From Plasmodiophora brassicae (taxonomy: Eukaryota), in assembly GCA_036867785.1 (NCBI GenBank), contig CP145421.1, positions 620,001 to 684,000 on the forward strand: a stretch of 64,000 nucleotides of DNA, written 5' to 3'. Of the stretch, positions 1,355 through 15,013 are shown piece by piece. Under the pieces are notes generated by a model that saw nothing but the letters and a program-made list of their open reading frames with translations, did not search any database and was not told where the DNA came from. The position numbers and the translations under genes are program-made. How positions within the stretch are numbered: the stretch's first letter is position 1; each line of letters begins with the position of its first letter.

Positions 1355-3717
1355 ATGGTCGCCGCTGTTGCCGTGTCGGCACCGCCGAACAGCTTCGGCC
1401 TGACGCCGCCCGACGACCTGAACACCGACTTCTCCAATGTGATCGTCGTCGACGGCCTGCCCGTTGCACCGGTGGCGAAATACGAGAAACTCGTCTCGCT
1501 CATTCGCAAGACGTTTTCGAAGTCGGTGCCGTGGGAGGGATGACGACCGTGTTATTGAGCGTTGGTGTGAATAGGTTTGGGAACATCAGTGAGATGTATG
1601 TGCCGACCGAATCCGATATGACTGTCGGTTATGGCTTCATCGAGTTCGAAGACTCGGAAGCTGCGTCGTACGCCGTTGCCGCAATGGACAAGGTCGCTCT
1701 GGACAAGAAGCACACGTACCGTGTGTCTCCATGGGGGTAATACGGGTCGACATTGTTTCCGCCGCGCGTGATTTAACGTCGGATGCAGTGACTTCGAACG
1801 CCTTGAGAACTACAGTGACGAGTACGTCCCTCCTGAAAGGTCTGAGTTCCAGCGAAGCGATGACCTGCGCAGCTGGTTGCAAGACGAAGCTGCCCGTGAG
1901 CAGTTCGCCTTGCGGTTTGCTGATGAAACTCAGGTACATGCGTCATCGTGTAAATTCGGTGTGACCCCGTTGACGTATGGTTACAGATCATGTGGCACGA
2001 CCCGTTGATGAACGAAGGAATGCGTCTGTGCTACGGCGGTGAAGAGCAGAAGATAGCCGGCAAGAACTGGACGGAACTCAACGTGGCCTGGTCGCCAATG
2101 GGCTCCTACTTCGCTACGTTTCATTTCCAGGGGATTATGCTGTGGGGAGGCAGCAGCTGGAAGAACCTTGCCCGGTTCGGCCATGAGGACGTTCGCCAAA
2201 TCGAATTCTCCCCTTGCGAACGATTCGTTGTCACGTACTCGGGCATTGAAGCGACGAAACGCGGAGACCCGGAGTGTATTCAGATCCACGATATCCGGGG
2301 TGGCAAGATGATGAGAGGGTTCCCTGGCGTGCTTCCAGGCCAAGTAAGTTGGCGCTGGTACGCGTGAGATGACACGGTGACCAATGAGAACCACTGTAGA
2401 CTGTCAGCCAGCCGTGGCCTATCATCAAATGGAGCTTCGATGGCAAGTATTTCGCTCGACTTGGTGTCGATGAGATTCTCGTCTACGATGTATGCCGGAA
2501 ATCGTTTCTCTGCAGCGTGCCTGCTGATCCGTCCGTTTAGAGTGCGACCATGAAGCTGTTGGAGGGCAAACCGCTGAAAGCTCGTGCAGCGCAGGAGTTC
2601 CAGTGGTCGCCATCACAGCACATTATTTCTTACTGGTCCCCTGAAATGGATAACATCCCTGTTTCTGTCTCGCTTGTTGCTATTCCTTCGCGAACTGCGA
2701 TTCGTACGTTATCCTTGCCGTTCGAACATGTTCCTAGTCTGACATTCGTCAAAAGGCGAGAAGCATCTGTTCAACGTGGTCAGCGTCGAACTTCACTGGC
2801 AGAGCGCCGGCGAGTACCTATGCGTCCTCGTCGCCAGGCAGAAGTCCAAGTCAAAGGCCAAGGCCACCAAGGTGACGTCGACGAACTTTGAAATCTTCCG
2901 ATTGATGGAGAAGGACGTTCCCGTCGAAGTGCTGGAGTTCAAGGAGCTTATCTCCGCCTTTGCATGGGAACCTCGTGGTGCTCGTTTCGCTGTCATCCAT
3001 GGCGACGGCTTCGCGAACAAGTACAACGTTTCGTTCTATTCCGTCAAGAAATCCAAGATCAAGTTGGATGATGCCCCACCGGATCCCCGACCCGTCAATG
3101 CGCTCCACTGGTCACCTCAAGGTAACTACATCATTCTGGCCGGTCTTGGTCAGATGAACGGTATGCTCGAGTTTTACGACGTTAACCGGAAGGCCAGCCT
3201 GTCTGTTTCCGAGCATTTCATGTGCAATCACATTCAGTGGGGACCCTCCGGCATCTACGTTGCAACGGCTGTCGCTCAGCCAATCAGCACGCGAGAAGCC
3301 TGGCGGTTCGCGAACGAAAACGGGTTCAAGATCTGGACCTTCCAGGGCCTTCTCAAGCAAGAAAACCCGGTCGACCAGTTCTATCAGTTCCTGTGGCGTC
3401 CTCGACCGCCGACCCTGATCAGCAAGGAGCAGCAGGCGGAAATTCGTCGGACGATTCGCGAAGTATACTACAAGAAGTTTGATGAAGAGGACGAAGCTGT
3501 TCGCCAGAGCCAGCTGTCGTCGGAGGCCCGCTCTCGTGCCGAGGCCAAGAAGCTGTTCCGTGAGTTCCGGGCCAAGTGTGATGCGAGCGTTCGCGCTGAC
3601 GCCGCGCGCCGACAAGAGCTTCGTGGCGGGATCCCCAGTGAAGACGAGGACGACTACGAGATCACAGAGGTCGAGATTGACGAAGAGGTTGACGTTCAGG
3701 AAATCGTCATACCGTGA
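1355..3717 (+). CDS. EIF3B: Eukaryotic translation initiation factor 3 subunit B (multi-exon)
   Basis: RRM NVIVVDGLP..KYEKL..GYGFIEF; propeller motifs WSPMGSYFATFHFQGIMLWGG, FAWEP, WSPQGNYIILAG, FYQFLWRPRPPTL; acidic tail; short GT-AG introns join the ORF pieces. Confidence 0.96.
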
Positions 3718-3874
3718 TCATATCGACGTATGGATCGGGCTGGGGCCCTCATACACGCTGCATCTTCGAATCTCTATCAACATTGTCCTTGCCGCCTCAT
3801 GCTACTGCTAGTGCTTACAGGAAGCATTGGGCCCATTTATTGCTCTCATCATGCACGTTGCGACTTGCCAGACA

Positions 3875-4777
3875 TCAGATGCCAGACAGTTCTTTCAACG
3901 CTTGAGCGGCAGCGCTAATTGCCTTGGACAAATCGACGATTCCGGAAGGGTGGTCTTCGTCGTCCAGGCGGTCGCGGAGTTGTTCCAATTTGCGAACCAG
4001 AACGCCTTCGACAGTTCGAGCGACTAACGAGCAGTCACTTCCAGTCTGGCCACTACGCAATGTCGTCGACTCCACTTTGGGTAGAGATACCACGACTTCG
4101 TCCAGGATCTGACGGTCGTCAGTCGCCGGCGTCGGGATGTTGACCTCCACCCTTTCGCCGCTTTCGACTTGTGCTGGCGTATCTTCGTCCATAAATCGGT
4201 CACATCCGGCGCAGAACATCCTCCGGTCTGGGCTTTGTAGCAAAGGAGTCGCCGTGGCCTGCAAACAAATAATTCGGTAAGCAAACGGCGACGATCGGGT
4301 AGGCATAACTGCTTACGCAGGATCGACAATGTGCATTGAGCATTATCCAGCCAGAGAGTAACTTCGGCCCCATGCGTTGCGATATGCGGTCTCGCTCAGC
4401 GGATAGTGCCTCGATGCGACGCATCTCCTCGGGGCTGGGCGGCGTCCATCCACCGTCTTCTTCATCGTAGTCGTCCATGTCGGCGACGTCTTTCCCGGGC
4501 ACGTCAGCAACGTGCCCATTCGCCGTTGACAGCACCTTCATCTGCTCAGCCTGCTCTTCGGTCACGCAAGGCATCTCGCACGACACGCACTCAACGCCGT
4601 GCGTCTTGTGCCCGACAAGCACCGTCGTGCAACGTGGGCAATGCTGCGACAGCAGCGTCCATCCTTGCATCATCTTGCACTGCAGTCAGCAATGGTCCGC
4701 GTTCGGTGCGGCAGATGACGTACCTTCTCCGACAGCCGCGATATGCAGCGCTGCTCCTGGTCAACAGCCACCACCAT
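3875..4777 (-). CDS. SSSCA1/ZNRD2-like protein with two Auto_anti-p27 zinc-ribbon domains
   Basis: Two copies of (M/L)xxGWx(L/M)LxxHCxxC...CxxC; probable first exon MVVAVDQEQRCISRLSEK. Confidence 0.8.
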
Positions 4778-5149
4778 TGCGTGCCCGCCAGTGGCACTGC
4801 CGCAAACGAAAATACCGTAGTGCGCAGTGTTGGCATGGGAGCGATTCCGGAAATTATTACGGTAGGGACGCGTCCGCACGACCGCGTACGCGCAACGGCA
4901 ACCTCTTCATTCTTACTAGGGAATGCCACAATTAATCGACAATTAAAGGTCCGGTTCGAGCCACAATTGAGGAAGGATGTCCCTCGTGTGCACGCAATAC
5001 TGGCGCATTGGTGCTTTGTGCAGGTTACCCGCTGGAAAACGCGTTTCAAACAGTCGGACACCTTTGAATATGTAGATAACTTTTCCTCTCTGAGGCGATG
5101 TCACTTGCGTGCTTACTTTTGTGTTGGCCGGGAAGAGAAGGTTGGCGCC

Positions 5150-6580
5150 CATGCACGATCGAACTGGAATACGCTGTACAACGTGTGACGTCATACTCCG
5201 CAGTTACATGCCAGAACACAGTTGCAAGACTGCCAACTACGTATGCAGCCGATCAAACCGCCCCTCTTCAGCCTTGAGTGAACGACGTTTTGCAATTACA
5301 GGCATCCCTGCGCAGGTCCTTTTCATATGAGCTGCGCAGGTCTTCGAACTCCAGTTCGATTCGCTTCTGTTGTCTGATGTATCAGCAAACTGCAGTCCCT
5401 GAGTGTCAACGCACTGACGCATCACGCTGGAATATCTCACTCAGCGACAAAGTCTGTGAGCCGGGTATGAGGTTCGCCGAGCATGCACATTGCGGGCTCT
5501 TTGCCGAAAGTCTTCATATGCGTCGATGCCTGGCCCATTGTCGCCAAATAGTAGGTACACCCAGCAGCCCAGCATTGCGGATGCTGATGCGGATGCTGTT
5601 GATTCAGATCGTGAGCGAAGACATCGCGACTGCTATGTATTGCCTGACTGATTCCTCACACGAAGGTGTTCTCCACGCGAGTCATCGCTGGGTACGCGAG
5701 TGTGTTAAACAGTGAGTATTGACTCCCTAGTTATTCAAATTTGCAATGCCACAACTGAGGCGCGATGGAGCGCCACCTGCGGAATTTGTGGCATACGCCA
5801 CAAAGTGTTCTGGCGATGCCCAGCAAATGACAGCTGATGACGAATGATGCCTGATGGCGCCGCCGGCCGCTCACGTACGGCCTTCTCTTTCTGTGCCGAC
5901 CTTTTCGCCATTCACAATCCGTCGGAACAGTGTCATTTCGCCGAGCACGACCGAGCCCGACCGTCCTGGAAAATCCCCAGTAGATGCATCGTGTATTGGC
6001 GATCCTTGCTATTGACGTTCAGGTCTTGATGACCTCCTTGACGCCCAGCTGGTTGTTGCAGTTTGGGCAGGAATGGATGCAGTCGTACGCATGGTCGACA
6101 AAGAACGGGAGGCAACACAGGCAAGGGCAACCGACCAGGCATAGCCCGCCGCTGAGGACCCACGTACCCAATCCCGTTTCGCGCCTGGTAACAGTCGTCA
6201 CCGTCGCATGGCAGTACTTGCATACGACGAGGGCCGGGATCCTTCCAAACGTCCATGGAGGGTAGCTGACAACGGCAGGTGGCGAGACAGCTGCGACGCC
6301 GGCAGCCGCTGGAGTCGAAGCAGGCTGTCCGGCGACTGGCTGCTGCTGGCCTTGCTGTTGCGGCTGTGGTCGGTGCTGTTGTTGCTGTTGATGCTGGTGC
6401 AGCGCCATATTGCCGTCTGGGTCCACGACCTCTGTCCGGTTAGCTTCTTGATACATCGCACTTCAGACGTATGAGCTGCGTGACGAAAGCGGGCAATGCG
6501 CTGGAAACCTGTGGTTGGTCGCACTTGGTGGCCCTCCGTATTTATAGCACCGAGTGTTCCTTGTGACGTCCGAACGGTAC
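5150..6580. repeat. Copy A of a direct segmental duplication (MULE 5' remnant + LITAF gene)
   Basis: Aligns by eye with 10715-11823, from catgcacgatcgaactggaatacgctgtaca to gtgacgtccgaacggtac. Confidence 0.93.
6019..6456 (-). CDS. LITAF-domain protein, copy 1
   Basis: Q/P-rich N-terminus, then CKYC...hydrophobic Cys-rich segment...HSCPNC, the LITAF zinc-ribbon signature. Confidence 0.92.
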   Translation of the reverse strand: MYQEANRTEVVDPDGNMALHQHQQQQQHRPQPQQQGQQQPVAGQPASTPAAAGVAAVSPPAVVSYPPWTFGRIPALVVCKYCHATVTTVTRRETGLGTWVLSGGLCLVGCPCLCCLPFFVDHAYDCIHSCPNCNNQLGVKEVIKT

Positions 6581-6675
6581 TACAGTTTCATTACTGTCGT
6601 GGTAGGATGGTAGGAGGGTCACAAAAAATGCGCGCACTGCGCACTTTTGTGACCGCCAGGCCTATGAACAAGTAC

Positions 6676-8901
6676 CTACTTAGCCGGGCGGTGCAAGCAA
6701 AACCGCCAGGAACGCATTGCCAGCTGGGAACGCAGGTAGGTTGGGGCTCCACACAACCGCACCCCTTCGAAAACCGGAAGTGTGAGAAGTTGGCCCCCCA
6801 CTTTTCGACGAACTGCGGCAATGACGAGCCGCAGTGTCCACGATAGCACCGGCGTCAGGACCTGGTTGACGAACGTGCGTGCGCGCTCGGTCAAATCTGT
6901 CTTGCTGTCCGGCATCGACGCCTCGATGGACAAAAGCAGCACACTCTTCTCCGACGAAGTCGAAAGCTTGACCAGCTGTGAACCCCCAGGAAGATCGACA
7001 TTGCCGCCTCGCCTAGCGCACCCCCGGTTGTCATCGTTCGGATCAGGTTGCGGCAGCGGCGGCGGAGGTGACAATGACGACGCCATCGGCGCTTGGACTG
7101 GGGGCGGGGCCGGTGGCTGCTGGATGGCTGGCTGAGGTTCCGAATTGTTGAGTCGTTGGAGAACGACCTGGTTAACCAGCGACATCGTCTGTGCCAGCTG
7201 GGGCACATGCGTTTGAAGCAGTTGTTCCAGTTGTTGAAACGCCGGCGTCTCAGGGATATCACGCTCTGCCAGAGAGATGAGCTGCATCAGGGACACGGAC
7301 GCCGGATCGACCCGGAGCTGTGTCGCGACGTACGTCGACGCCAACCCGGGTATCGAGCTCGACTGCGGCGGGCACCTGCTATCGAGGGCGATCCGCCGAG
7401 CGTTGCGCAGGTTCTCCAAGAAGATCGGCTCCCACTTCGGCGTCAGCGCTAGCACGTGGCTGTTCGTCCTGCGCGCCCGGGCCAGAAGAGCTTTCGAATC
7501 GCGATAATACAATTCCGCGTTCTTGAGCGTCTTGTGGCGCGCCGCTTGCCTGATGTGGTCGAGGTCGCCACCACCCCAGATGGCGAACAGGTACGCCGTC
7601 TTGCGGATCGAGTGCGGGCCGTACCGGTGCATCGTGTCGTCGCCGACGACAGGCCTGCAAACACGAACGAACTCGGCGTTGAACTCGTCGTAGGACAATC
7701 CATCCGGGAACAATTCGAACGAAGCGGCGCCTCGGTCGATCGCGTCAAGGTGTTGCTTCGTGCCGAAGACCAACCCGGACTTGATGCGTGTCCGAGACAC
7801 CAACATGAACAACGCCCGGATGGGGCATAGCTTCGGGTGCGAATCAAGCCGGTACAAGACCAGATTGACGGAACCCTCGGCCTTGGCCCTCTCCGACTTG
7901 CCGCAGACCTGCACGACGAGCTGATCGACGCGGTCCAGGTCGTCCTTGGCCGTCATCTCGAGCAAGAAATCTTCAAGCGCGATGTCGACGATCTCGTCGG
8001 CCCGCAGAAACAGGTGGACGCCCAGCAGGATCGACACCCAGGTGGAATAGTCTCGGAGGGAGCCAGTCGCAACGAGCTGACGCCTGATCTCGAGTAGCTG
8101 GTCAGGCAGCAGAGCGAAGTTACCCTCTGCCTTGTACCCCTGCGTCTCGCGTTTCACCCATTGCTTGGTGTCGACCGCAACTTGACTCAGCACAGGATTG
8201 CCGCGCCGCCACAGACGTGGCTGTCCGACGTGATGAAGGCAGCCGAAAGACTGACTCGATCTCGAGAACGTCGCCCAGCACGTGTCGCAAGAATCATCAT
8301 GCTGTCCAACATGCCGGCCGCAGGCACTCGCTTGACGCGCCGCCTGGAACGCGTCCCAGCAGGCGTTGCACGCGTCTTCAAAGTTGCCACGTTGATCGCG
8401 CGCCGCATGCACCGCCGTAACGGCCCACTCGAACTGCTCCACGTTGCCAGGGCCATTCCACCCGCCTTGGCAGACGACAGGCTGCCCACGCCGATCCAGG
8501 ACGGGCACGCCCGAGGCATCGACAAGCGGCGTCCCCTGGACGCCCCTCTTGAACCGAACAAAGTTCGATAACGTCTTTGCACTCATGGACGGGCAGTGGT
8601 CAGATGGCGCATCGTCCGGCAGGACAAGCAGGCTGTCGTAGTCACCGACCAGGCAACAGTAGTACCTGAGTCCACGTATGTGCTTGCCGTAGGCATGCAC
8701 CGAGTTCTTGGCCAGGGGCTTGCTCCCGGTGACAGGGCGGCTCGCTCCTTCCGACACGCGCAGGCGGCGACGAACCAGGCCCAAACCGACAACGGCGTCC
8801 GCCCATAACTCGGCGGGGACATGGTACTTGGCCCGGTTGCTGACACGGAACTGGGCCGCTGTGCGCGTTCGTTGCCCTCCAGACGATCGTGATCGACCCA
8901 T
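6676..8901 (-). CDS. Tyrosine recombinase, 741 aa, probable frameshift near the C-terminus (~6843)
   Basis: Full catalytic set in order: LFLRADE (R), CGKSE (K), HSIRK (HxxR), ARHK (H), LYYRD (Y). Confidence 0.88.
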   Translation of the reverse strand: MGRSRSSGGQRTRTAAQFRVSNRAKYHVPAELWADAVVGLGLVRRRLRVSEGASRPVTGSKPLAKNSVHAYGKHIRGLRYYCCLVGDYDSLLVLPDDAPSDHCPSMSAKTLSNFVRFKRGVQGTPLVDASGVPVLDRRGQPVVCQGGWNGPGNVEQFEWAVTAVHAARDQRGNFEDACNACWDAFQAARQASACGRHVGQHDDSCDTCWATFSRSSQSFGCLHHVGQPRLWRRGNPVLSQVAVDTKQWVKRETQGYKAEGNFALLPDQLLEIRRQLVATGSLRDYSTWVSILLGVHLFLRADEIVDIALEDFLLEMTAKDDLDRVDQLVVQVCGKSERAKAEGSVNLVLYRLDSHPKLCPIRALFMLVSRTRIKSGLVFGTKQHLDAIDRGAASFELFPDGLSYDEFNAEFVRVCRPVVGDDTMHRYGPHSIRKTAYLFAIWGGGDLDHIRQAARHKTLKNAELYYRDSKALLARARRTNSHVLALTPKWEPIFLENLRNARRIALDSRCPPQSSSIPGLASTYVATQLRVDPASVSLMQLISLAERDIPETPAFQQLEQLLQTHVPQLAQTMSLVNQVVLQRLNNSEPQPAIQQPPAPPPVQAPMASSLSPPPPLPQPDPNDDNRGCARRGGNVDLPGGSQLVKLSTSSEKSVLLLSIEASMPDSKTDLTERARTFVNQVLTPVLSWTLRLVIAAVRRKVGGQLLTLPVFEGVRLCGAPTYLRSQLAMRSWRFCLHRPAK

Positions 8902-8991
8902 GACGTCGTCGACAATGCGGTGTGGAAACCTGCGTGGGGATGCGTGCGGCGGTGCGCTTGGTTGTACCGGGAGGGGGTGGCGGCGCCGTCT

Positions 8992-9123
8992 GGTAGGATC
9001 CGTGGGTGCGGTAGGATCCGTGGGTGCGGTAGGATCCGTGGGTGCGGTAGGATCCGTGGGTGCGGTAGGATCCGTGGGTGCGGTAGGATCCGTGGTAGGA
9101 CCCTGGTAGGACCGTTGGTAGGG
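8992..9123. repeat. 18-bp tandem repeat (GGTAGGATCCGTGGGTGC x5) plus four truncated GGTAGG units
   Basis: Read directly from the sequence. Confidence 0.97.
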
Positions 9124-9474
9124 ACGAGCTGTTACTCAGTCCAGCCTCACGTTACGTGATGAAGCCGTGGCCACTGGCCTCAACTTTTGTTACCGTTTTT
9201 TATCCCATATGCAAAAAAGCCAGGGACGCACGCGCGGAGCGTTGCGGCTCCAACTCAACCGTCAGCGTCGTGTAGGTCACCAGCAGTTTGGCGATTGGCC
9301 CTAGTTGCACAACCTTGCGATACCCGCCCAAGTAGCTCCTGTCGGGGTCCTGCACAGGCTGGGCGCTGGCCTGTTCGGGCACAGGCGGCGCCGGGTCGGC
9401 GTCCTGAAGCTCAGCGGCGGCGGCGGCGGCGGCCTGCTCGGGGTCGTCCGCCGCCAGGACGTCGTCGACGCGTT

Positions 9475-10030
9475 GTCGAAGGTTGGCAAGTCGATGTAGC
9501 GGCGCACAGGTGCCCCTGTGCGTTGGCTCACAAATTTGGATTCTGTGTACATGTTGTTGCGGCTCTCAAGAAGTCCAACCTTCCGATCCCAGGACAGGTA
9601 GCTCCTGTCGGACGGTTTGTCAATCGGCCCCCCCGGCCGGCGCCCAACCGCGGGCGTCGTGGCCAGCGGCGTGCAGCTCACTGACATGGTTGCATTGTAT
9701 TACTCGTAATCTAGTGCACCGCCTAGCATCCTTGGGCGCCCAGGTCCGGGCAGATAACCTTGCGGTCTAGCCCGGGACCTCTTCTAAATGTGCTGGGACA
9801 CCTCGTCCACCGCCACGAGGTCCCTGCCCGGCACGACGCTGGCCACGACGCCCGCGGTTGGGCGCCGGCCGGGGGGCCCGATTCACAAACCGTCCGACAG
9901 GAGCTACCTGTCCTGGGATCGGAAGGTTGGACTTCTTGAGAGCCGCAACAATATGTACACAGAATCCAAATTTGTGAGCCAACGCACAGGGGCACCGGTG
10001 CGCCGCTACATCGACTTGCCAACCTTCGAC
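9475..10030. repeat. ~194-bp inverted repeat (9475-9668 / 9837-10030) of a SWIM-encoding transposase segment
   Basis: EGWQVDVAAHRCPCALAHKFGFCVH(V/I)VAALKK...GRRGQRR is encoded on opposite strands; arms nearly identical. Confidence 0.95.
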
Positions 10031-10880
10031 CGGCATATCGACACGTTCGAAATGCTCGTAATGCTTCATGGCCCCGCGTAGGATTATCTGCCTCCAACGC
10101 GCATCTGAACAGTCCGCCATGTCGCGTTCGTTGAAATCAGCTCACTGTTCAATCACAGACCTAAGGCGGCTTACGTCGTGCGCTGCAAATGGGCGCTGAT
10201 GGACGAGAACACTGCCGTCGGGATCGCGGCGGATGTCGAACACGCCGGGCGGGTCAAGGGATGCCCAATGACTGAGCATCGTCTTGCTCGGCGCGAAATC
10301 TGCCGCAAACTGTACAGGCAATTGCGATTTGACATGAATCAGGTTCGCGGCAGCCCGGATCCACATGGGAATGTGGAGCCGCTTCCCAGGAAATCCCGTC
10401 GCTGTCGTTTTGAACGTCGAGTCGTGATTAATGCTTACCTCGACGTTGGGATGCCTTCGCGCTATATCGACATATCGAGCTAGAAACGCTTTGCTGGTCA
10501 CACGTACCGACAACAATTAGGTATCACTAATTCAGCGGCACATCCATTTGCCTACCCAGCATGAAGGGATTATCATGCATCCGACCCCCTGCCCAGACGG
10601 AGGTCGTTGTTTGCGTCCACGTCATACCCGATGACAAACGGGGCGTTGTCTGGCCATGCATGTATCGCATCTTGTCCACAGACCAGCTTCTTGGCCTCGG
10701 CAACGGCGTCCGCACATGCACGATCGAACTGGAATACGCTGTACATCAAGCTATAGTGTGAAGTCACACTCTGGATACTACACCCAGCAGCCCAGCACTG
10801 CGGATGCTGATGCGGATGCTGTTGATTCAGATCGTGAGCGAAGACATCGCGACTGCCATGTTTGCCTGACTGATTTCTCA
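9767..10880 (-). pseudogene. Internally deleted, disrupted Mutator/MULE-type transposase remnant
   Basis: GRGSD..NPFMLG..VTSKAFL...INHDSTFKTTATGFP resembles the first catalytic Asp motif of MULE transposases; C-terminal SWIM CxC-x7-CxH; rest of the DDE core missing; frameshifts present. Confidence 0.72.
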
Positions 10881-11823
10881 CACGAAGGTGTTCTCCACGC
10901 GAGTCATCGCTGGGTTCGCGAGTACAGTGCGTATTGACTCCCTACAGTAGTTATTCAAAATTGCAATGCCACAATTGAGGCGCGATCATGGAGCGCCACC
11001 ATTAACATATTTGTGGAATTTGTGGCATACGCCACAAAGTGACCTGGCGATGCCCAGCAAATGACAGCTGATGGCGAACGATGCCTGCTGGCGCCGCGGC
11101 CGGCCGCTCACGTACGGCCTTCTCTTTCGGTGCCGCCCTTTCGCCATTCACAACTCATCGGAACAGTGTCATTTCGCCGAGCACGACCGAGCACGACCGA
11201 CCTGGAAAAGCCCCAGTAGATGCATCGTGTATTGGCGATCCTTGCTGTTGAGATTCAGGTCCTGATGACCTCCTTGACGCCCAGCTGGTTGTTGCAGTTT
11301 GGGCAGGAATGAATGCAGTCGTACGCTTGGTCGACAAAGAACGGGAGGCAACACAGGCAAGGGCAACCGACAAGGCACAGCCCGCCGCTGAGGACCCACG
11401 TACCCAATCCCGTTTCGCGCCTGGTAACGGTCGTCACCGTCGCATGGCAGTACTTGCATACCACGAGGGCCGGGATCCTTCCGAACGTCCAAGGAGGGTA
11501 GTTGACAGCGGCGGGTGGCGAGACAGCTGCGATGTCGGCAACCGCTGGAGTCGAAGCAGGCTGTCCGACTGGCTGCTGCTGGACTTGCTGCAGTTGCCAT
11601 TGCTGCTGCTGTGGTTGGTGTTGTTGCTGCTGTTGATGCTGGTGCAGCGCCATATTGTCGTCGGGGTCCACGACCTTTGTCCGGTTAGCTTCTTGATGCA
11701 TCGCACTTCAGACGTGAGCTGCGTGACGAACGCGGACAATGCACTGGAAACCTCTGTGGTTGGCCGCACGAGGTGGCCCTCCGTATTTAGCACCGAGTGT
11801 TCCATGTGACGTCCGAACGGTAC
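10715..11823. repeat. Copy B of the segmental duplication (lacks the ~5185-5555 segment of copy A)
   Basis: High identity to 5150-6580 by eye. Confidence 0.93.
11255..11701 (-). CDS. LITAF-domain protein, copy 2
   Basis: LITAF domain near-identical to copy 1; differs mainly in the Q-rich tract. Confidence 0.92.
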   Translation of the reverse strand: MHQEANRTKVVDPDDNMALHQHQQQQQHQPQQQQWQLQQVQQQPVGQPASTPAVADIAAVSPPAAVNYPPWTFGRIPALVVCKYCHATVTTVTRRETGLGTWVLSGGLCLVGCPCLCCLPFFVDQAYDCIHSCPNCNNQLGVKEVIRT

Positions 11824-12040
11824 GGAAAGCATTACCGCGGACCAGAGGAACACCCACGTGCGTAGGAATTGGCACATATTTGGTGCATGTTCTTCTGGAG
11901 CGGCGCCTGGAGCAGGCCCCTCTGCTGTCAGGTTCAACTGACTCACGCGTTGACCGACTGCCGTCGGTCCGCGGTCGTCTCGGACTTTATTGCCGTCGGC
12001 GCCATTTGAGGCGCCATTTGCCAACGCGCCCGTTCAGGCG

Positions 12041-12620
12041 TTACATCAGATTCGGTCTATTCCTGGCACGTCTGCGGCCAGGCCCGGGCTTGTCTGGGTA
12101 GCGTCGGTGGAATTCTGCGATTGCGCGGTCAAGTCCCCCGGTGCCTCGTAGGGAGGTGGCCGGTTCCCAAGTCCGTTCTGAGGCCGGGTATCCGTCCCAG
12201 TCGAGGAAGTAGAACAGGCGGCCGTTCCGGAATCGCGAATCGAGGATGTCGTTGACCACGTACAGCGGCGCATCTTCCCCTTCGAGAACGATCGGATCTG
12301 GTGGTGCCGGTTGACGCCCAGGAATAACGCTAGGAACGTATGGTTCCAGCAACGACGAGTGAAACACGTTGTGCATGCGGCACGTGGCGGGCAGCGCGAG
12401 TTCGAATGCGACCTTGTTGACGACCTTCGTTACCTTGTAAGGTCCGAGCATGGTGACGTCCAGTTTGTCGCAGGGTCGGCCAGTTTGCAGTGCGCCTTTA
12501 CGCAGCATGACGAGATCACCTGCCTTGTATGTCGGGCACGGTATCCTGCTCCGATCCGCGAAGTGCTTCATCGATCGCACCGCTCGTTCGAGGTTCCGTC
12601 GCAGGGCCGCGCCTCCGCAA
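12041..12620 (-). mobile_element. Ty3/Gypsy chromovirus remnant (integrase C-terminal GPY/F module + chromodomain)
   Basis: YKAGDLVML..KLD...GPYKV......FELALP....HNVFHSSLLEPY then YVVNDILDSR.....YFLDWDGYPASERTWEP. No RT, integrase core or LTR seen. Confidence 0.9.
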
Positions 12621-12689
12621 GGCTTCATCTCGCAGTCCCCATTTAATTGGTAGTCGGGAGCCGGCCTAAGTTGCACGAGCTATATTGCG

Positions 12690-13200
12690 TTCGCATGACG
12701 CAATATCAGGCGCGTCCACCTCATTGTCGTCTTCTCGTCGGGATTCTTGGTCTGCTCGAAGCGCTCGACGTCCATTCGCGGCATCCAGGAGCAGTCTGCC
12801 GACGATGCGCTGCAGTTTCGCTGCAACGTCAGGAGCCACGTTCTTCGCCAGCAGCTCGTTCAGCTGTTAACGAGGGCCCAAGTTGGTGACTGAATCCACG
12901 ATAACCTGCGTTGCAATGCCGACGCGCATCTGCTGATCGGTCAAGAGCCCGACCGATTAACCGCATGAACTCGTCGGCCACCGTATGCAGATCGTCTCGC
13001 CTAATTTTTCCAGCACGAGCCGCTGCTTGGGACAGATTCTCGACGTGGATGGGGCGCCACTGCGGCATCAAATCGATGACTGCCCGGATTTCAGGGTCGA
13101 ACTTGGCCAGCTCCAACTTCTCGTTGTACTTCGTCAGCGCCGGATTGAGATGCGCGACCTTGATGTTGCAGATCTCCTCCGCACGAAGATACAGCGAGGG
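12690..13200 (-). pseudogene. Second, decayed and internally deleted member of the same tyrosine-recombinase family
   Basis: LYLRAEEICNI ~ LFLRADEIVDI; VIDLMPQWRPIHVENL ~ VLALTPKWEPIFLENL; in another frame after a stop, QLNELLAKNVAP ~ QLEQLLQTHVP. Confidence 0.68.
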
Positions 13201-13737
13201 CCTCATAGAGGGGGTACCCTGTAGACTGATTGTAAAACTGGTTGAACTGGTTGCCTTATCTTGCCTATGCTTGCCGCTTGGTTGCTTCGTCATCAGCAGT
13301 TCAGTGCCCAATCACAACGCTACCTACGTCTACGGTCCGAAATGCCACGAAAGCCCCTGACTCGACCAGAACTTTGACGTGTTCCTTGACGTCGCACGGA
13401 TTGACACCAGATGATGACGCCGTCTGCGAGTCCGCCTCCAAATCATCAAGTCGCGTCAACATTTGCTTCCGGTGCTTCGCCCACAGCTCGCCGACACGGC
13501 CACACGTTCACCACTGCAAGCGTGTGTAGCACGGGACGCCAACGACCGCCACGACGTCCTGGATAGACCCGACAAATTACAAGCTCGGCAAGGCCCTCCG
13601 TCCTCCTGCCCCAGCTGCCACTGCAATCGCAACGTGCACTCTAATCACCGCAACCCCCAACTGGGAGACGCGGAGCTATGCCAACGGCAGGACGTAAACG
13701 GATCGAATAGTCGAACAGTGTAATATTTCGGATGCCC

Positions 13738-15013
13738 TCACTGTCTGCGACGTTTGGCAGGCGGTTCACGTTCGCGGTTTCGGCCGGATTCGCGGTAACG
13801 ATAAGAGTCGCGTCTGGGAGGCGGGCTGGGTGGTCGCCGACGCCGCCGAGATGGATCTACAGAACGTGAGCGGTCCCGCACACGACGACCTGAGTCGGCA
13901 GCAAAGGGCCTGCGTCGAGAGTCACCACGACCCCGACCAGATCGCTGTGGTGAGCGTCGTATGGATGACACGTCTGAGGTAACATTGCGACGGTTCGTAT
14001 CTAACGTAGTCGGATGCGTACTGGATGCGCCCACATCGCGGTCAACCTTAGCTTGTGGTTCAGGGGATGGCATCTTTGGCGAAGGGCTCCTCTTGGTGGG
14101 ATCTTCATCAGAAGTCGCGGATGTCGCTTTCTCGACTGGTGACCGGTCTTCAGCAGGAGGCGTCGGCAAACCAGCAGCTTGCACGGGTGGGGACGGTGAG
14201 CCAGATGCGGTCGGTGGTGGAGGCGCTTGCAATTCGGCTGACATTGTCGGTGACCTTATGCTCAGCTGCGGCGGCGACTTCGGCTGGTTCTTTGCGAGGT
14301 TCGCCAGAGGCGAATTGCCTGACTTGAAGTCCTGAACAGCCTTGGCGATGCCCCGATTCGGCCTGAGATCATCGGTTGATATGCCTTTGACGCCACACGA
14401 CGGGCAGCGAAGGTGCGAATTCGATAAGATTGCCTGTCGAACACAAGCAGAACAGTATGTCGCAAAGCAACACGGTGTGACGACCGGATCAGAGAACAAA
14501 GACCGACACAACTTGCAGGTCAATTTCTCGTTCACACTGGTCGGCACACCAGCAGGCGGGATCGCTGGTGATGGTGTGGGACGTTCGACGCCATTCGTGC
14601 TAGCAGGAGCCGTCGATGCGGGTTGCGGCGGTCGAGGCCGGTCGGCAACGCCATTTGGCGAGGTATTTACTACTTCAGCATTCTGAAGGACGCGCACGCT
14701 AGCCGCATGTACAGCGGGAACGCGCTTCACTTCTACCGATGTATTCTTTGGGATCAGGTAGTTTTCCGATGAGTATTCTACGGGAATCGAGTATCGTCAG
14801 TTCACCATTAAAATCCCCTAAGCACGGAACGATCATCCTACTTTCTCCCGTTTGTGCATTGGTGATGATGAAGTCGAAATCGCGGTTTGACGGATCCGTC
14901 TTCTCTTGAGCGACGATGGCGCGCTTCAGTTCGTTCAGGGAGATGGCGGCCGAGTCGAACGTGATGGTTCCCCACTTCTTCGAAGCGGACCTGAACTTGT
15001 AGTGCACGCTCAT
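13738..15013 (-). CDS. RBBP6: RBBP6/Mpe1-like protein (DWNN ubiquitin-like + RING + RS-rich tail), one intron ~14780-14840
   Basis: MSVHYKFRS..ITFD..LKRAI..FDFIITNAQTGE|EYSSENYLIPKNTSVEVKRVP; RING LTCKLC..TPCC..YCSAC..CPSC. Confidence 0.88.

Follow-up and report, generated by a model that had tools for sequence, protein, structure and literature searches.

A Decayed Copy of a Probable Crypton-Type Tyrosine Recombinase Element in the Genome of the Clubroot Parasite Plasmodiophora brassicae

We analyzed a 64,000-nucleotide stretch of the Plasmodiophora brassicae genome (assembly GCA_036867785.1, contig CP145421.1, positions 620,001–684,000; hereafter the window, with positions counted from its first letter), which contains a repeated unit whose only gene is predicted to encode a tyrosine recombinase (YR). 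The unit, its open reading frame (ORF) and the predicted recombinase domains are listed below.

6581–9127, minus strand: repeated unit of ~2.55 kb, its left edge placed at the end of a flank duplication at 6580, with a change in depth and loose contig ends at 6596 and 9127.
6676–8901, minus strand: uninterrupted ORF of 741 amino acids, homologous to intact relatives through residue 686.
8152–8859, minus strand: predicted N-terminal Cre-like core-binding region, residues ~15–250, based on conservation and on a Foldseek alignment to Cre that spans both Cre domains.
7402–8139, minus strand: predicted catalytic domain, residues ~255–500, with R300, E303, K335, H430, R433, H456, and Y465, based on the family alignment and Foldseek.
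8002–8004, minus strand: codon of R300, conserved in 80 of 81 family members.
7897–7899, minus strand: codon of K335, conserved in 81 of 81.
7612–7614, minus strand: codon of H430, conserved in 77 of 81.
7603–7605, minus strand: codon of R433, conserved in 78 of 81.
7534–7536, minus strand: codon of H456, conserved in 80 of 81.
7507–7509, minus strand: codon of Y465, conserved in 79 of 81.

A preliminary description of this DNA had placed an element at 6581–9130, which agrees with the flank-duplication edge at 6580, with the rise and fall of depth and with the loose ends at 6596 and 9127. The repeated unit has space for the 741-residue ORF alone, and the reading frame 5′ of its ATG is closed. 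To gauge repetitiveness and splicing, Logan contigs of four public runs (X11 and X8, which are DNA, and X14 and X17, which are RNA-like) were aligned to window positions 3000–14000. X14 and X17 had been classed as RNA only by guess. A neighboring gene (~3829–5179) has spliced gaps at 4258–4315 (58 nt) and 4674–4723 (50 nt), which read CT..AC on the plus strand, that is, GT..AG on the minus strand. Both gaps were seen in contigs of X14 and X17 and not in the DNA runs; thus, X14 and X17 hold spliced RNA. The RNA-derived contigs are colinear with the recombinase ORF, from which no intron is removed, in agreement with the intronless ORF of ~2.2 kb that had been described before. According to passages of the genome paper, P. 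brassicae genes have a mean of four introns of 60 bp (PMC4471660). The ORF-colinear contigs of X14 and X17 have a depth of 90–143, versus 1–8.5 across the intergenic region 5202–5935, which is a weak hint that the element is transcribed, because DNA carry-over multiplied by copy number could account for much of this depth.

Conservation was counted in an alignment of 81 full-length relatives, and the same alignment was supplied to AlphaFold2. The resulting model of the window protein has a mean pLDDT of 84.6 and a pTM of 0.74. Foldseek comparison of this model with the PDB, a check that the preliminary description had proposed, revealed 38 matches at E ≤ 1e-3, with Cre complexes in the top ranks, followed by XerH, integron integrase (IntI), XerA, and lambda integrase. 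The best match, Cre 3crx_A (E 1.5e-6, TM 0.73 normalized to Cre), extends over 461 aligned columns, and both Cre domains are therefore present in the model. These results support a Cre-like tyrosine recombinase fold for the modeled protein. The complete R-K-HxxR-H-Y catalytic set reported earlier was also recovered as R300, K335, H430xxR433, H456, and Y465, and all six residues are retained in 72 of the 81 full-length family members.

The spacing of these residues is 23 between R433 and H456 and 9 between H456 and Y465. In Cre, R292, W315, and Y324 are separated by the same 23 and 9 positions. The window protein thus resembles Cre of phage P1 (and the Xer and integron integrases) in both fold domains, in the catalytic residues and in their local spacing, but differs in that its sequence identity to Cre is 12%, that it is twice as long and that its gene belongs to a repeated eukaryotic element. 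It also adds a CCCH motif, a beta-hairpin insert, a helical domain, a linker, and a C-terminal module. A megablast search of positions 6000–9600 against phage records gave no match.

The window protein is 97% identical over 687 residues (667/687) to XXQ40038.1, an intact paralogue of 725 amino acids, and the similarity then ends. NCBI already labels this paralogue a "Tyr recombinase domain-containing protein", which the preliminary description overlooked. Two features account for the 3′ part of the window copy:

6844–6851, minus strand: frameshift site, where 8 nt present in the majority copies appear to be deleted (hand alignment with the loose-end consensus) and where tblastn switches frame.
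6744–6848, minus strand: conserved C-terminal Cys/His tail, out of frame, matched by tblastn of paralogue residues 689–723 (86% identity).

The tail motif RCY.EHC...KWGANFSH.RFSKGCGC is encoded at 6848..6744 in a frame other than that of the ORF. Left of 6851, contigs of the majority copies no longer follow the window and read VLRCYREHC in translation, as in the intact paralogue. Since the ORF leaves the correct frame after residue 686, its final ~55 residues are out-of-frame sequence and not real protein; the normal stop is also lost in the tail frame of the window copy. There are also at least 36 positions between 6865 and 8668 where almost the entire depth in the four runs has a letter different from that of the window, and in the tree described below the terminal branch of the window protein is 0.034 versus 0.0055 for the intact paralogue. 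These signs point to a diverged minority copy, which is probably non-autonomous.

Several regions accompany the recombinase domains, two of which were located as follows:

8368–8370, 8359–8361, 8239–8241, and 8230–8232, minus strand: codons of C178, C181, C221, and H224, which form a CCCH motif (CxxC...CxxH).
7003–7140, minus strand: disordered P/Q-rich linker, residues ~588–633, with a pLDDT of 43–51 (below 50 at residues 602–630).

The CCCH residues are conserved in 81 (C178), 81 (C181), 80 (C221), and 79 (H224) of the 81 family members. In P. brassicae proteins, the CxxCW...GCxxH motif (8239–8370, residues ~178–224) contains an internal duplication of ~29 amino acids, which is modeled at low confidence (pLDDT 56–65) and is absent from the remaining eight sequences spanning the motif in a ten-sequence alignment, Spongospora included. 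Thus, the Cys/His motif noted earlier is real, but it is not an insertion in this protein, since 79–81 of 81 members share it and just the ~29-residue duplication is specific to P. brassicae. The P/Q linker proposed from the sequence is borne out by the predicted disorder. Between the catalytic domain and this linker, a helical domain (residues ~498–587) is confidently modeled.

The family shares a C-terminal module with the pattern LTxxARxF...P...C...H...F...C.G....C. A distinct C-terminal domain had been suggested before; it is real and conserved within the family, but it is frameshifted in the window copy, which that description had missed. When residues 486–725 of the intact paralogue, its C-terminal 240, were folded alone, the pLDDT was 81.6, and Foldseek of this module gave no usable match in the PDB (one match, E 8.3) or BFVD (best E 2.6). 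The module is therefore conserved and, in the model, helical, with Cys/His residues and without a structural match in these two databases.

To define the family, we searched 1.84 billion cluster representatives (clusters at 50% identity) exhaustively with HMMER, because word-indexed protein searches, whose candidate lists were filled by low-complexity words, gave only 3–6 relatives. The exhaustive search detected 1037 clusters at E ≤ 1e-3, of which 613 remained at E ≤ 1e-10 and 154 at E ≤ 1e-30. Most relatives have 650–800 amino acids, and their alignments extend over residues ~60–687. The contigs that carry relatives measure 2.3–3.9 kb and have a single ORF of ~700 amino acids. Organism names were sought for 30 of the 150 listed representatives, ten of which carry a name. 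The named members are from P. brassicae (fragments with 94–98% identity, in addition to the intact XXQ40038.1), from the chytrids Zopfochytrium, Blyttiomyces, Boothiomyces, Irineochytrium, and Physocladia, and from the oomycete Aphanomyces stellatus. A protein of Spongospora subterranea is 53% identical to the window protein, and a protein language model gave a lead to a diatom cluster. The host distribution is patchy, over three eukaryotic supergroups.

In a tree of 68 relatives, the two Plasmodiophora sequences, Spongospora and one further sequence form a clade with 100% SH-aLRT support, which falls in a poorly resolved group with chytrid and oomycete sequences. This tree has neither an outgroup nor a reference Crypton and is silent on superfamily membership. 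In 16 metagenome loci, we found neither terminal overlaps nor common end structures from which termini could be defined; tandem repeats occur 3′ of the gene in some of them. A separate observation concerns an 8.3-kb, AT-rich metagenome contig, in which a relative at 5227–7046 (32% identity, residues 53–718) is broken into ORFs of less than 150 amino acids when read with the standard code. Its host may have reassigned stop codons, or the copy may be decayed.

The repetition of the unit was assessed from contig depth. Long flanking contigs have depths of 270.4 (X11) and 94.8 (X8), within flank ranges of 84–270 and 95–131, respectively. Over 6670–8871, the summed contig depth is 2261–3621 in X11 and 810–1702 in X8, and one contig within the unit reaches 1959.7. 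Relative to the single-copy flanks, this suggests about 7–13 copies, with the reservation that summed depth is not copy number. At 9168 the depth is back to 279.3 in X11, yet it is 504.6 in X8, whose flanks are at ~95. The left edge is accurate to within a few bases, as loose ends mark 6596 and contigs reach ~6580, where the flank duplication ends. Two joints at single-copy depth (6630 to 7641 and 6952 to 8520) represent copies with internal deletions, and a third joint (8991 to 9064) shows that the majority variant carries four fewer 18-bp repeat units than the window copy. Several P. brassicae proteins, 94–98% identical, lie on different contigs and assemblies. The ~7–13-fold repetition and the internally deleted variants indicate a mobile repeat and not a host gene.

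The last point bears on whether the gene might be a domesticated, immobile recombinase-derived host gene, like the DUF3504 genes or Ndc10. NCBI annotates the intact paralogues as ordinary proteins, and 7 of 63 relatives show weak similarity to NDC10_II, which is the recombinase-like domain in a domesticated protein of yeast. However, the gene is multi-copy by contig depth in two DNA runs, so it is not the single-copy host gene that the preliminary description had considered; deleted variants exist, the window copy is frameshifted, and relatives are distributed patchily over three supergroups. The catalytic set is also complete, whereas domesticated forms lack it, according to passages of Kojima and Jurka (2011, Mob DNA 2:12; PMC3212892). 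We therefore regard domestication as highly improbable.

The element contains a YR without reverse transcriptase (RT) and is repeated in the genome, as seen from its depth (~7–13 times that of the flanks), its deleted variants and its paralogues on several contigs. Pfam detected no RT, RNase H, methyltransferase, GCR1_C, DUF3504, or DUF3435 in the window protein or in 63 relatives, and the unit holds this ORF alone, which upholds the earlier remark that RT and RNase H are lacking. These data support a Crypton-type element that encodes only a YR, and the Crypton-like DNA transposon proposed before is consistent with the Cre-like model, the multi-copy state and the absence of GCR1_C, DUF3504, and DUF3435. 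It should be mentioned that "Crypton" covers several unrelated superfamilies, according to passages of a 2026 paper (PMC13465315).

Comparison with the Crypton groups was based on the published account, in the passages of PMC3212892 that describe them. CryptonS elements have no GCR1_C but a C-terminal region conserved in the group, 5–6-bp terminal direct repeats and mostly TATGG termini, and their hosts are oomycetes and a diatom (PMC3212892). The architecture of the window element fits this published description. The element is small, it encodes a YR alone, GCR1_C is absent (0/63 relatives), and the family has a conserved C-terminal region; relatives of the window protein occur in the oomycete Aphanomyces, and the language-model lead points to a diatom cluster. 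On the other hand, the window host is a rhizarian and the chytrid members are outside the host table in the parts of PMC3212892 referred to here. The window element also differs from CryptonS in having neither TATGG at its boundaries nor a C48 peptidase ORF.

CryptonF elements combine a YR with GCR1_C, as stated in the same passages (PMC3212892). Some likeness to CryptonF and Ndc10 was observed, in that NDC10_II is the sole Pfam family matched by several relatives (7/63 by HMMER, best E 1.4e-6); one such match that was inspected scores 15.4 bits, below the Pfam cut-off of 26.3. Phage_integrase (PF00589) is matched by 1 of the 63 relatives (E 0.005) and not by the window protein. Neighbors in a language-model atlas are clusters with NDC10_II, Phage_integrase, NDC10_II plus GCR1_C, and DUF3504, which we treat as a lead only; the nearest named clusters carry NDC10_II, one of them together with GCR1_C. 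In contrast to CryptonF, GCR1_C is absent from the window protein and all 63 relatives by Pfam, and the C-terminal module of the family is without a structural match in the PDB or BFVD.

CryptonA/I, the DUF3504 genes, Starship captains, and DIRS/Ngaro/VIPER share with this element that all are eukaryotic YR elements or derivatives. CryptonA/I have no C-terminal domain and are related to DUF3504, according to passages of PMC3212892, whereas DUF3504 was found in 0 of 63 relatives and not in the window protein. Starships, large cargo-carrying elements whose 5′ end holds a DUF3435 captain, differ in this domain (0/63 relatives) and in size, which is far above 2.5 kb. DIRS, Ngaro, and VIPER, which combine an RT/RNase H ORF with terminal repeats of the inverted or split direct kind, differ in that the window protein and the 63 relatives lack RT and RNase H and the unit measures 2.55 kb.

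Considering these results together, it is likely that this feature of the window represents a single decayed copy from a multi-copy, Crypton-type DNA transposon of P. brassicae, which is small (~2.5 kb) and whose sole gene encodes a Cre-like YR. Its surroundings are also relevant to this reading, and include two copies of a direct duplication:

5145–6580, no strand assigned: A1, the first flank copy in a direct duplication of ~1.1 kb; it has an additional ~360 bp at 5199–5555 and a LITAF-like gene at 6019–6456 (minus strand), and it ends flush with the element.
10710–11823, no strand assigned: flank copy A2, 90% identical to A1 by self-comparison, with a second intact LITAF-like gene at 11255–11701 (minus strand).

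The LITAF-like zinc-ribbon genes of A1 and A2 match Pfam at E 2e-21 and 1e-21, respectively, and both copies are at single-copy depth (bins 5569–6302 and 10707–11807).

Several observations count against the Crypton-type transposon. At the protein level, Pfam finds no YR in the window protein (at E ≤ 1, there is a sub-threshold zinc-ribbon match alone), and a profile search against the PDB gave no YR, just weak MepR and Bcl-2-A1 matches (E 0.006–0.4); phmmer against the PDB also returned no relevant match for this protein. Because sequence profiles miss it, the YR assignment rests on the predicted fold and the motifs. The frameshift was deduced by comparison with the paralogue and the majority contigs. 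At the DNA level, summed contig depth is not equivalent to copy number, and the right edge at 9127 is supported by a single contig's loose end in each of the DNA runs (X11 and X8). A simple Crypton insertion does not predict a 1.1-kb direct duplication flush with the left boundary. In a paralogous empty-site test, the sequence past A2 was unlike the right flank of the element (score 18 versus a shuffle mean of 19.5). We could demonstrate neither a terminal direct repeat nor an empty site or a circle junction, and none of the joints listed connects 9127 to 6581. In addition, the depth in X11 climbs again to 2147 near 9251, and 9239–10339 is itself repeated ~3–4 times; the complete element may thus extend further or be a composite.

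One form of the latter idea is that the YR gene lies within a larger composite, either the whole of 6581–10709, including the repeated and palindrome-bearing 9128–10709, or a unit that the 1.1-kb direct repeats delimit, with these repeats in the role of the long or split direct repeats of DIRS- and Ngaro-type elements and with the LITAF-like gene as cargo. The 90% identical repeats at 5145–6580 and 10710–11823 do bracket the interval, the left one ends exactly at the element, 9239–10339 is at 3–4 times flank depth, and the X11 depth is high again near 9251. However, the 1.1-kb repeats themselves are at single-copy depth, and each contains an intact LITAF-like ORF, so that they look like a duplicated host gene. 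Moreover, the X11 depth is 279.3 at 9168, one contig in each DNA run leaves the window sequence at 9127, and 9128–10709 contains no RT or other Pfam domain. Such a composite thus appears improbable, and we retain the ~2.55-kb Crypton-type unit.

Other features were observed in the right flank. Within 9239–10339 (~3–4 times flank depth), the segments 9475–9693 and 9812–10030 form a 219-nt inverted repeat, 94–97.5% complementary, with 118 nt between the arms. The ORFs of 9128–10709 have no Pfam domain, RT included; a SWIM-type zinc finger read by eye (CxC...CxH) in the ORF 9767–10120 was rejected, as Pfam gave it no support. One contig at single-copy depth, present in both DNA runs, links 11642 back to 9347 (side length 40), which could reflect a different arrangement of this DNA or an artefact caused by a CAG/CTG-rich stretch. 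Directly after A2, on the minus strand, lies a Ty3/gypsy-type relic (12041–12628) with SH3_Tf2-1 (Tf2-like integrase SH3) and Chromo domains, and contig depth is high beside it, at 11808–12174.

A transposon-rich flank with such a chromodomain/integrase relic might suggest that the YR gene is the remnant of a DIRS/Ngaro/VIPER-like YR retrotransposon after RT loss. This relic, however, is of the Ty3/gypsy type (SH3_Tf2-1 plus Chromo) and is located beyond the second flank repeat. RT and RNase H are found in none of the 63 relatives, and family members reside on 2.3–3.9 kb contigs with one ~700-residue ORF. We consider a retrotransposon origin of this kind very unlikely, and the Crypton-type transposon remains our preferred interpretation.

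The ends of the unit contain short repeats that may be relevant to how such an element moves:

8992–9122, plus strand: subterminal tandem repeats 5′ of the ORF, with 5.8 copies of an 18-bp unit, 3.5 copies of a 12-bp unit and eight GGTAGGA; the unit number varies between copies.
6600–6619, plus strand: TGGTAGGA, 2.5 copies, at the opposite end of the unit and in the orientation of the upstream array (repeat search).
6579–6600, no strand assigned: candidate recombination core across the left boundary, with 8-bp imperfect inverted arms (7/8) and a 6-bp spacer, not above chance.

GGTAGGA occurs 11 times in the window versus 3.1 expected, and none of 100 shuffles reached 11. Ten of the 11 copies, all on the plus strand, are at the two ends of the unit (two at 6601–6615 and eight at 8992–9111). 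In an excised circle, the two clusters would be ~36 bp apart. If the element behaves like other YR elements, its intact copies would be excised as circles and inserted anew through site-specific recombination into sites resembling the element ends. We propose the GGTAGGA arrays close to the two ends as putative binding sites of the recombinase. The intact paralogues might also mobilize the frameshifted window copy in trans.

Other end structures gave less. The layout of arms and spacer at 6579–6600 resembles a YR core site. A hypothetical end-to-end junction contains one inverted repeat, which does not span the junction, versus a mean of ~0.5 in shuffles of equal length. Cryptons in general have direct repeats of 4–6 bp at their termini and neither terminal inverted repeats nor long terminal repeats; we found no inverted repeat joining the two ends of the unit. 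TATGG does not occur at the boundaries; the nearest sites (6405–6409 and 9205–9209) are outside the repeated unit, and TATGG termini were therefore rejected.

Regarding novelty, this is a known kind of element in an unreported host, the clubroot parasite P. brassicae, and not a new kind of system. Among the papers listed in a literature search, which is not proof of absence, none reports a Crypton in Plasmodiophora, Spongospora, Rhizaria, or chytrids, and passages of two P. brassicae genome papers (including PMC4471660) mention no recombinase. It is possible that the element represents an undescribed Crypton lineage. A bolder proposal is that the family forms a separate, unnamed Crypton-like superfamily, distinct from CryptonS/F/A/I, across Rhizaria, chytrid fungi, oomycetes, and many uncultured protists. 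Such a superfamily would be recognized by a Cre-like core that bears the CCCH motif and by a Cys/His helical C-terminal module without a known structural relative, together with heptamer arrays near both ends (GGTAGGA in P. brassicae), which would serve as accessory binding sites that meet in the excised circle. We offer this proposal tentatively and consider it rather unlikely.

The genome of P. brassicae is compact, with 25.5 Mb and 5.4% repeats, according to passages of PMC4471660. The finding leaves current views on how such elements work unchanged, and the GGTAGGA end architecture merits testing. To our knowledge, no class of eukaryotic DNA transposons has been studied less than the Cryptons, and nobody has yet reconstituted Crypton transposition. 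A young family of ~10 copies with an intact paralogue, deleted derivatives, and possible transcripts would be a tractable case for studying Crypton ends and target choice. The large conserved family (1037 clusters), with its confidently predicted but unmatched C-terminal module, may be of interest to researchers of site-specific recombinases, and the element could serve as a marker that distinguishes isolates of this crop pathogen.

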